Positions 620 to 988 are shown, counted from the first letter of the stretch. The stretch: 15,059 nucleotides of DNA from a virus (IMGVR_UViG_2609460125_000004), one strand, 5' to 3'. The notes: generated by a model from the letters alone, not told the origin. Numbers and translations are program-made.

Positions 620-988
620 TTAGTCAGCGAAGGTTAAGACGAGAATTACCTTAATGATGTCTGCTACAACAGACACGGCCATAGATAAACCAAAGACGAT
701 CCAAGCCATAGAGATGTCTTCACTACCATCGTATAGGGTTCCGTAATCACTGGTGTAAGGCGTAAATGTCGCGCCTTGATACAATAGGTATAAGCTTGAT
801 CCATAGAGGATAAATGCAGATATCCCTTGTATTGCTATGATCACTAGAATCATGAAACGAGCTGATCTATGCGCCCAAGCCTGGCTTATTTTTTCTGATA
901 GAGATTTCGCAATAAAAGCATGCGCTAAGCCGTAAATTGTTGAGATTGCCAACATCCCCAAAAAGCTTGCTATAGCGGTTCCAACCAT
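620..988 (-). CDS. Small inner-membrane protein (122 aa, about three predicted transmembrane helices), co-transcribed downstream of cI; function unknown
   Basis: ATG at 988 follows a strong Shine-Dalgarno (AAGGGGG) 18 nt after the cI stop. Three hydrophobic stretches (about residues 3-27, 45-70, 95-120). Occupies the rexAB position of lambda but does not resemble RexB as I recall it. Confidence 0.75.
   Translation of the reverse strand: MVGTAIASFLGMLAISTIYGLAHAFIAKSLSEKISQAWAHRSARFMILVIIAIQGISAFILYGSSLYLLYQGATFTPYTSDYGTLYDGSEDISMAWIVFGLSMAVSVVADIIKVILVLTFAD

Follow-up and report, generated by a model that had tools for sequence, protein, structure and literature searches.

hkaS, the second gene of the repressor operon in HK620-type lambdoid phages, encodes a predicted three-helix membrane protein and candidate superinfection exclusion factor

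Gene content and expression signals of the cI-hkaS operon

The window analyzed in this study is a stretch of viral DNA of 15,059 nt (IMGVR_UViG_2609460125_000004), the left part of which carries the immunity module of a lambdoid prophage. The repressor gene cI (1007..1723, minus strand) is the first gene of its operon and encodes a protein of 238 aa with the Pfam domains HTH_3 and Peptidase_S24, which is 98-99% identical to the cI of HK620, mEpX2 and HK630. Its TGA stop codon (1009..1007) is followed on the same strand by hkaS (620..988), which begins with the ATG at 988..986 and is predicted to encode a three-pass membrane protein of 122 aa, as judged from the ORF list, the match to PHROG 6534, hydropathy and the AlphaFold2 (AF2) model. 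The two genes are separated by a spacer of 18 nt (989..1006, TCACGCAAGGGGGCGCTT). A ribosome-binding site (RBS), AAGGGGG (994..1000, minus strand), was read from the sequence within this spacer, 5 nt before the ATG of hkaS. The preliminary description of the locus had reported a 122-aa ORF starting 18 nt after the cI stop codon behind a strong RBS, and this was borne out.

The arrangement is conserved beside cI homologues in other prophages, a point that the preliminary description had proposed to check. The spacing between cI and hkaS was 17-20 nt in all of the 88 loci with upstream sequence, always behind the same cI C-terminal domain, and also in the prophages of Salmonella, Hafnia and Buttiauxella. 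An AAGGA-type RBS was present at the same place in the homologous Salmonella and Hafnia loci.

The operators OR3-OR2-OR1 and the promoter pR (1734..1807, given without strand) were transferred from the HK620 record, and their AATACC...GGTATT half-sites could be seen in the sequence. By analogy with lambda and 434, a divergent maintenance promoter pRM for cI-hkaS would be located within 1734..1807; the HK620 record has no annotation for pRM. The terminator of the cI-hkaS transcript, tIMM (509..541, minus strand), is an AT-rich hairpin with a U-rich tract, identified by RNA folding and by the HK620 feature 'tIMM; termination of cI transcript'. The operators OL1-OL3 and pL (439..510, minus strand), also transferred from the HK620 annotation, form the left end of the immunity module, and nutL (approximately 359-400) comes next. 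The order in the HK620 record is cI, hkaS, tIMM, OL3-OL1/pL, nutL and N, with hkaS as the sole ORF between cI and the terminator.

RNA folding of 495-625 gave two hairpins (588-613 and 509-541; z = -2.9), the second of which is tIMM. The first is a GC-rich stem-loop (588..613, minus strand; 7 + 3 bp) located 7 nt past the hkaS stop codon and upstream of the tIMM hairpin. It has no U-tract and no annotation in the HK620 record, and could be a stabilizer of the mRNA 3' end or a processing site. No RNA family was detected in the window using Rfam.

In a consensus scan of 330-1900, the sole promoter-like site was pL (474->446, minus strand). Between cI and hkaS, no terminator-like site was detected on the coding (minus) strand, and the scan also gave no internal promoter of the lambda pLIT type for separate hkaS expression. 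Together with the conserved RBS and the spacing of 17-20 nt, this makes co-transcription with cI, as already proposed in the preliminary description, the straightforward reading, with good though indirect support. From these features, cI and hkaS would be on one transcript, started at pRM in lysogens and at pRE while lysogeny is being established. With translation from its own RBS, every lysogen should make HkaS continuously. In lambdoid phages with an HK620-type cI, the repressor operon ends with hkaS, its second gene.

The first 334 nt of the window are part of IS911 (IS3-family), with the C-terminus of the transposase at 3..326 and a terminal inverted repeat that ends at 334. The IS911 end is located approximately 25 nt to the left of nutL (359-400) and separates pL-nutL from the expected start of N. 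IS911 copies on plasmids of Shigella and E. albertii match this segment at 100% identity, and none of the 5,426 complete E. coli genomes contained the junction between IS911 and the prophage. The source may be Shigella-like. Early expression that depends on N is probably crippled in this prophage, with cI-hkaS left intact.

Conservation of hkaS and its linkage to cI

The gene carries the name hkaS in the genome record of coliphage HK620 (AF335538), where the product is given as 'unknown'. The gene is therefore not newly seen, as it has been named and catalogued since that record. The HkaS of the window is 96.7% identical to that of HK620. It corresponds to RefSeq WP_000233129.1, labeled 'hypothetical protein', and gave a full-length match to the profile of PHROG 6534, a group of unknown function (residues 1-122 of the 122-position profile, E 1.1e-78). 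No paper on hkaS function was found in the literature searched; the Tai and SieA papers both use HK620, and hkaS is addressed in neither of them.

Positions 400-2100 of the window were 98-99.8% identical to the immunity regions in 16 phage records, including HK620, HK630, HK140, mEpX2, HF4s, HZ41, vB_EcoP-611R6, phi296, phi367 and two Stx2c-converting phages. The HkaS protein was 92-100% identical to the 'hypothetical protein' or 'HkaS' of these 16 records. A common immunity-region variant has been described for phi296 and phi367 (PMC12502783). The identical HkaS sequence was present on at least 989 contigs, none of which gave it a functional name.

Stx2c-converting phages were the nearest matches of the immunity region, and their similarity covers only 357-2624 of the window. 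The Q antiterminator gene (8076..8699) and the holin gene (9368..9691) of the window are approximately 670 nt apart (8700-9367), leaving no room for an stx operon. The immunity module is a mosaic element found in both Stx and non-Stx phages.

The hkaS ORF was uninterrupted and exactly 122 codons long in all of the 89 loci fetched from IMG/VR, NCBI, ENA and Logan. Homologues with 54-82% identity from Hafnia, Salmonella, Buttiauxella and metagenomes had the same length and aligned with no gaps. Using the Nei-Gojobori method, the dN/dS of hkaS was 0.15 between the window and the Hafnia type, and 0.20 between the Salmonella and Hafnia types. Its dS was like that of the neighboring cI (0.66 versus 0.76) and ranged from 0.66 to saturated across the comparisons. 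The dN/dS of cI was 0.03, and the hkaS protein evolves approximately four times faster than cI. The dN/dS values of 0.15-0.2 with a dS like that of cI indicate that hkaS has been co-inherited with cI under purifying selection.

The GC content of hkaS is 42%, compared with 46% for cI and 48% for the window. This low value fits a moron, a sign that is weakened by the AT-rich codon bias common to membrane proteins anyway. Rare frameshifted hkaS alleles occur in the databases (P0005, P0008 and P0009). Their N-terminus is read in an alternative frame (MITQGGAYGWNRYSKLFGDVGNL...; 867-1010 in the window, minus strand), which overlaps with the stop codon of cI. Either rare pseudogenes or errors of assembly, these alleles explain the 129-aa 'variants'. 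That hkaS might be only a chance or decaying ORF in an AT-rich stretch that separates cI from oL, as its low GC content, the absence of the family outside this module and the few frameshifted alleles could suggest, is effectively refuted by the constant length of 122 codons even in homologues only 54-60% identical, by the low dN/dS at a high to saturated dS, by the conserved RBS and by an AF2 model that is confident despite a shallow alignment. The gene is a genuine, selected protein-coding gene.

The family is small. A word-indexed search of 5.8 billion clusters returned 11 HkaS clusters, and an exhaustive profile search of 1.84 billion representative proteins returned one genuine HkaS cluster and one fragment. 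Among the GTDB species representatives, a single hkaS locus was found, in Buttiauxella. A protein of 5,949 aa (P0014) matched the HkaS profile only at the Tyr/Gly-rich loop (profile positions 71-96), in nine stretches (E 2.8e-7), with the match region at residues ~4028-4055. The match is probably fortuitous, arising from a repeat or low-complexity sequence. HkaS constitutes an orphan family confined to lambdoid prophages of Enterobacterales.

Within this range the linkage to cI is complete. Searches of 5,426 complete E. coli genomes with cI alone, with hkaS alone and with the joint segment each gave the same number of hits, 147 places in 146 genomes. A cI that is 86-95% identical again precedes hkaS in Salmonella and Hafnia-type prophages, and N follows hkaS. 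The Buttiauxella locus (Buttiauxella sp. CBCPKK010000004.1; L011 2333-3369) encodes a repressor with an unrelated N-terminal HTH and a closely similar S24 C-terminal domain, and hkaS is retained behind it. This chimeric repressor indicates a recombination junction inside cI. Therefore, the unit that travels is the C-terminal domain of cI, responsible for cleavage and oligomerization, together with hkaS, and not the operator or immunity specificity. The gene travels with the immunity region across very different virion types, being found in the P22-like podovirus HK620, in mEpX2 and HK630, which have annotated lambda-like early regions, and in Stx-phage-like podoviruses (PMC12502783).

Predicted architecture of HkaS and comparison with known families

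Kyte-Doolittle analysis identified three hydrophobic segments in HkaS, at approximately residues 1-27, 44-70 and 92-121. The AF2 model, computed from a six-sequence alignment (mean pLDDT 91.6, pTM 0.78), contained long helices at 2-29, 41-74 and 89-121, a short helix at 31-38 and a beta-hairpin at 78-87. The preliminary description had proposed about three hydrophobic helices, which agrees with both analyses. The loop 28-44 carries K28, K33, R41 and R44 with one acidic residue (net +3), and the loop 71-91 carries D81, D87, E90 and D91 with no basic residue (net -4). By the positive-inside rule, the predicted topology is N-out with 28-44 inside, 71-91 outside and C-in. In this model the cytoplasmic loop would be a basic stretch of 17 residues with a short amphipathic helix, while the periplasmic loop would form an acidic, Tyr/Gly-rich beta-hairpin. 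Approximately 85% of the HkaS residues are in the three long helices, leaving no soluble domain, and the protein is presumably located in the inner membrane.

Across members with 54-82% identity, the invariant residues include G3, A5, S8, G11, S16 and Y19 of the first transmembrane (TM1) region. One face of TM1 has the pattern G-xxx-[AG]-xxx-G, made up of the invariant G3 and G11 and an Ala or Gly at position 7. K33, Q36, W38, H40 and R44 are invariant in the cytoplasmic loop, as are Q54 in TM2, the residues Y67, L69, Y70, G72 and T74, and Y82, G83, Y86 and G88 at the hairpin. Further invariant positions are W96, G100, D110, K113 and the C-terminal VLTFAD, with D110 and K113 forming a charged pair inside TM3. 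Amino-acid variation was spread evenly over the topological regions and showed no arms-race hotspot. The idea that the periplasmic loop is specially conserved was dropped on this account, and no inference is drawn from regional conservation.

HkaS gave nothing significant against Pfam or NCBIfam and nothing in a PDB sequence search. No family of the PADLOC-DB v2 defence models was matched at E<=10, and the Foldseek search of BFVD gave no match below E 0.3. Weak matches to Cation_ATPase_C, TssN and MCR-2 were rejected as noise from TM composition, all being below the curated cut-offs. The HMM and Foldseek searches proposed in the preliminary description thus gave no confident match to a characterized housekeeping or structural family. 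Its statement that the protein could not be placed holds for characterized families (Pfam, NCBIfam, PADLOC, PDB) but not for catalogues, where the protein already has the name hkaS and a place in PHROG 6534.

Among known systems, lambda RexAB has the same position, directly 3' of cI and ahead of the terminator and oL/pL. RexB is a membrane ion channel with four TM helices, compared with three predicted in HkaS, and RexA is the sensor. The likeness extends to the inclusion of a small polytopic inner-membrane protein and to expression from the pRM operon in lysogens, which for hkaS is read from gene order. However, the lambda system comprises two genes with RexA as sensor, whereas hkaS is a single gene with no RexA-like neighbor, and RexB has 144 aa while HkaS has 122 aa. 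HkaS had no Pfam match to RexB (PF15968) at E<=1 and an hhalign probability of 0.2%, with lambda RexB scoring 305 bits in the same Pfam library. It also had no profile match to SieB (PF14163), for which the control, lambda SieB, scored 103 bits. The preliminary judgement that the protein resembles neither RexB nor SieB was accordingly confirmed.

HK97 gp15 and T4 Imm are small phage inner-membrane proteins, each of which alone stops DNA translocation across the cytoplasmic membrane. They differ from HkaS in genomic position and promoter, and were absent from its BFVD and Pfam matches. A class I holin of the lambda S type was rejected as well, since no Pfam holin match was obtained, the C-terminus (...VLTFAD) lacks a charged tail and the gene is outside the lysis cassette, which begins at 9368 in the window.

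P22 SieA, a predicted three-TM inner-membrane protein of 162-164 aa, is expressed from the prophage and is alone enough to block DNA injection (PMC10883804). With its small size, three predicted TMs and little soluble mass, it is the closest to HkaS in predicted architecture and expected expression mode and serves as the model for the mechanism favored below. The genomic setting differs, as sieA has its own promoter beside ejection-protein genes, whereas hkaS is located in the repressor operon. Identity with SieA was rejected (hhalign probability 0.3%), and the conserved cytoplasmic motif of SieA, FxRYPxEAxxFNK (PMC10883804), is missing from HkaS. No match to the P22 (type A) SieA was found in E. 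coli phage records, including those of hkaS carriers.

Phage 434 hex is a single accessory gene directly after a related cI and on the pRM transcript, in which it resembles hkaS. Hex is reported to exclude a heterologous phage, and it stabilizes 434 lysogens by protecting the repressor from RecA-stimulated cleavage (PMC3564112). The re-annotated Hex (134 aa) has a single hydrophobic segment, which is located at its N-terminus and resembles a signal peptide; its remainder is hydrophilic, and it is not polytopic like HkaS. Moreover, hex overlaps the cI stop codon, whereas hkaS is 18 nt away from cI. The best BLASTP alignment between the two proteins (E 4.0 over 8 residues) gave no reason to equate them. 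In the 434 record (OL657226; L010 2627-3031), Hex begins MIRIAALLSILLTTSANSEC, a secretion-signal-like sequence, and the rest is hydrophilic; according to a note in this record, the published paper inferred a wrong hex start codon. If Hex is periplasmic, it would be a poor fit with the model in which Hex protects a cytoplasmic repressor from RecA (PMC3564112).

BstA of the Salmonella prophage BTP1 brings about abortive infection and acts where phage DNA is replicated (PMC8585504). Like hkaS, bstA is a single gene with a conserved position 3' of the prophage repressor, presumably expressed from the repressor promoter, and it is a defence gene. However, BstA is not a small polytopic membrane protein and showed no similarity to HkaS by Pfam or PADLOC. 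From these sequence comparisons, HkaS is placed outside RexB, SieB, SieA, Hex and any described defence family.

The slot behind cI and possible roles of HkaS

Exclusion genes that ride on the cI transcript are a textbook idea. The position of hkaS is the same as that of rexAB in lambda, as the preliminary description had noted, and it is a documented hotspot for exclusion cargo (PMC8585504, PMC3564112). The interval between cI and N is a mosaic hotspot that holds rexAB and bstA (PMC8585504), and hex is exclusion cargo in the same slot (PMC3564112). Phages with a cI C-terminal domain 70-82% identical were found to carry unrelated genes or nothing behind cI. In Enterobacter ENT1 the slot contained two ORFs, a soluble one of 127 aa and one of 109 aa with a single hydrophobic segment at its C-terminal end. 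Its content was a P63C-domain protein in Erwinia Midgardsormr38, a soluble protein of ~120 aa in CharmingMan and Cronobacter ENT39118, small ORFs in Providencia PSTNGR2lys, and nothing in Serratia OS31. It is occupied by hex in phage 434, whose cI C-terminal domain is 69% identical, and by rexA-rexB in lambda. The differing contents behind related cI genes indicate that the slot is a variable cargo site, and the existence of related repressors without hkaS indicates that hkaS is accessory and not essential to the repressor.

The preliminary description had put the gene forward, from its position and architecture, as a candidate for single-gene superinfection exclusion or membrane-depolarizing abortive infection. 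HkaS may be a lysogen-expressed inner-membrane accessory protein of the moron type that most likely acts in superinfection exclusion by blocking genome entry, a reading by analogy to which we give a probability of about 0.4. It would shield the lysogen, and hence the prophage, from other phages at the inner membrane by interfering with a channel or host membrane component used by the incoming genome, as in exclusion of the P22 SieA, HK97 gp15 or T4 Imm type. This reading comes from weighing together the predicted architecture and the precedent of the slot, in that genes co-transcribed with lambdoid repressors (rexAB, bstA, hex) typically have exclusion functions. Several points count against it. 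The presence of hkaS in phages of very different virion types implies no particular injection machinery as the target, the even amino-acid variation gives no arms-race hotspot, and HK620 already has hkaP, noted as a 'putative superinfection exclusion protein' in its record. The hkaP gene (L001 1690-2184) is encoded on the opposite strand, within the pL region, and its product had no match in Pfam, SieB included. The module family may thus have two exclusion candidates, hkaS and hkaP.

A role outside defence is unlikely, yet it would account for part of the data. HkaS would then tune lysogen stability or induction in the manner of Hex, or change the membrane physiology of the lysogen by lysogenic conversion, for example in stress or antimicrobial tolerance or in transport. 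The absolute linkage with the cI C-terminal domain points in this direction, since hkaS accompanies this cI in all of its 146 E. coli genomes and Buttiauxella keeps it with the same C-terminal domain behind a different DNA-binding domain. Hex is a precedent from the same slot, as it stabilizes 434 lysogens (PMC3564112), and the invariant residues could reflect a conserved partner in the host and not phage targets, which evolve fast. However, the adjacency of 18 nt explains the linkage without functional coupling, and repressors with 70-82% identical C-terminal domains work in phages that have no hkaS, which counts against an obligatory function together with the repressor. A protein that is ~85% membrane-embedded, with a cytoplasmic loop of 17 residues, is also unlikely to regulate a repressor that is soluble and bound to DNA, and HkaS is unrelated to Hex.

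Abortive infection is less likely than superinfection exclusion, and we consider it improbable. HkaS would stay silent in the membrane and, on infection, oligomerize into a pore or become a partner of the invader's holin, leading to depolarization or premature lysis with no progeny, like RexB or AbiZ in a single protein. Class I holins have three TMs and an N-out/C-in topology, which HkaS resembles in size, number of TMs and predicted topology. Glycine-zipper-like faces and charged pairs in TM helices are common in oligomeric membrane pores, and HkaS has both, in the G-xxx-[AG]-xxx-G face of TM1 and the invariant D110/K113 pair of TM3. The slot is also the same as that of rexAB and bstA, both of which are abortive-infection systems (PMC8585504). 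On the other hand, HkaS is not homologous to RexB, having three TM helices and not four, and is without the charged tail found at the C-terminus of holins. If the strongest lysogenic promoter drives it constitutively, the protein is by implication harmless by default. HkaS also has no RexA-like sensor gene beside it and exposes hardly any cytoplasmic surface by which infection could be detected. The lack of a soluble cytoplasmic domain and of a partner gene able to sense infection is what favors superinfection exclusion over abortive infection.

A bolder version is doubtful and carries a still lower probability. HkaS would be a self-sufficient, single-polypeptide membrane immunity protein of a new fold family, which either gates a conduit in the host inner membrane through which the genomes of many unrelated phages enter, with broad exclusion as the result, or oligomerizes by its glycine-zipper helix into a pore triggered by infection, replacing RexA and RexB together. 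The remaining probability falls to other functions.

Returning to HkaS as a candidate superinfection exclusion protein, the interest of hkaS is that of a well-defined, widespread and easily testable orphan and not of a surprise; the gene itself is already catalogued as hkaS, and it is unrelated in sequence to the known exclusion genes in the slot. The module is present in ~2.7% of complete E. coli genomes (146/5,426), in Stx2c-converting phages, in related Stx-negative phages from EHEC strains and in the model phages HK620, mEpX2 and HK630. All of these carriers should express HkaS constitutively, and the defence databases do not contain hkaS. If HkaS is not defensive, it would show by counter-example that not every gene in the slot between cI and N should be taken for defence. 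If it is a self-sufficient immunity protein, it would represent a new, minimal type of prophage defence moving together with the C-terminal domain of the repressor. If HkaS excludes phages, it would be a new single-gene family among the exclusion functions of repressor operons, host-range and phage-therapy predictions would be affected for strains with such prophages, and its 122 aa would provide a very small model for the block of genome entry at the membrane.
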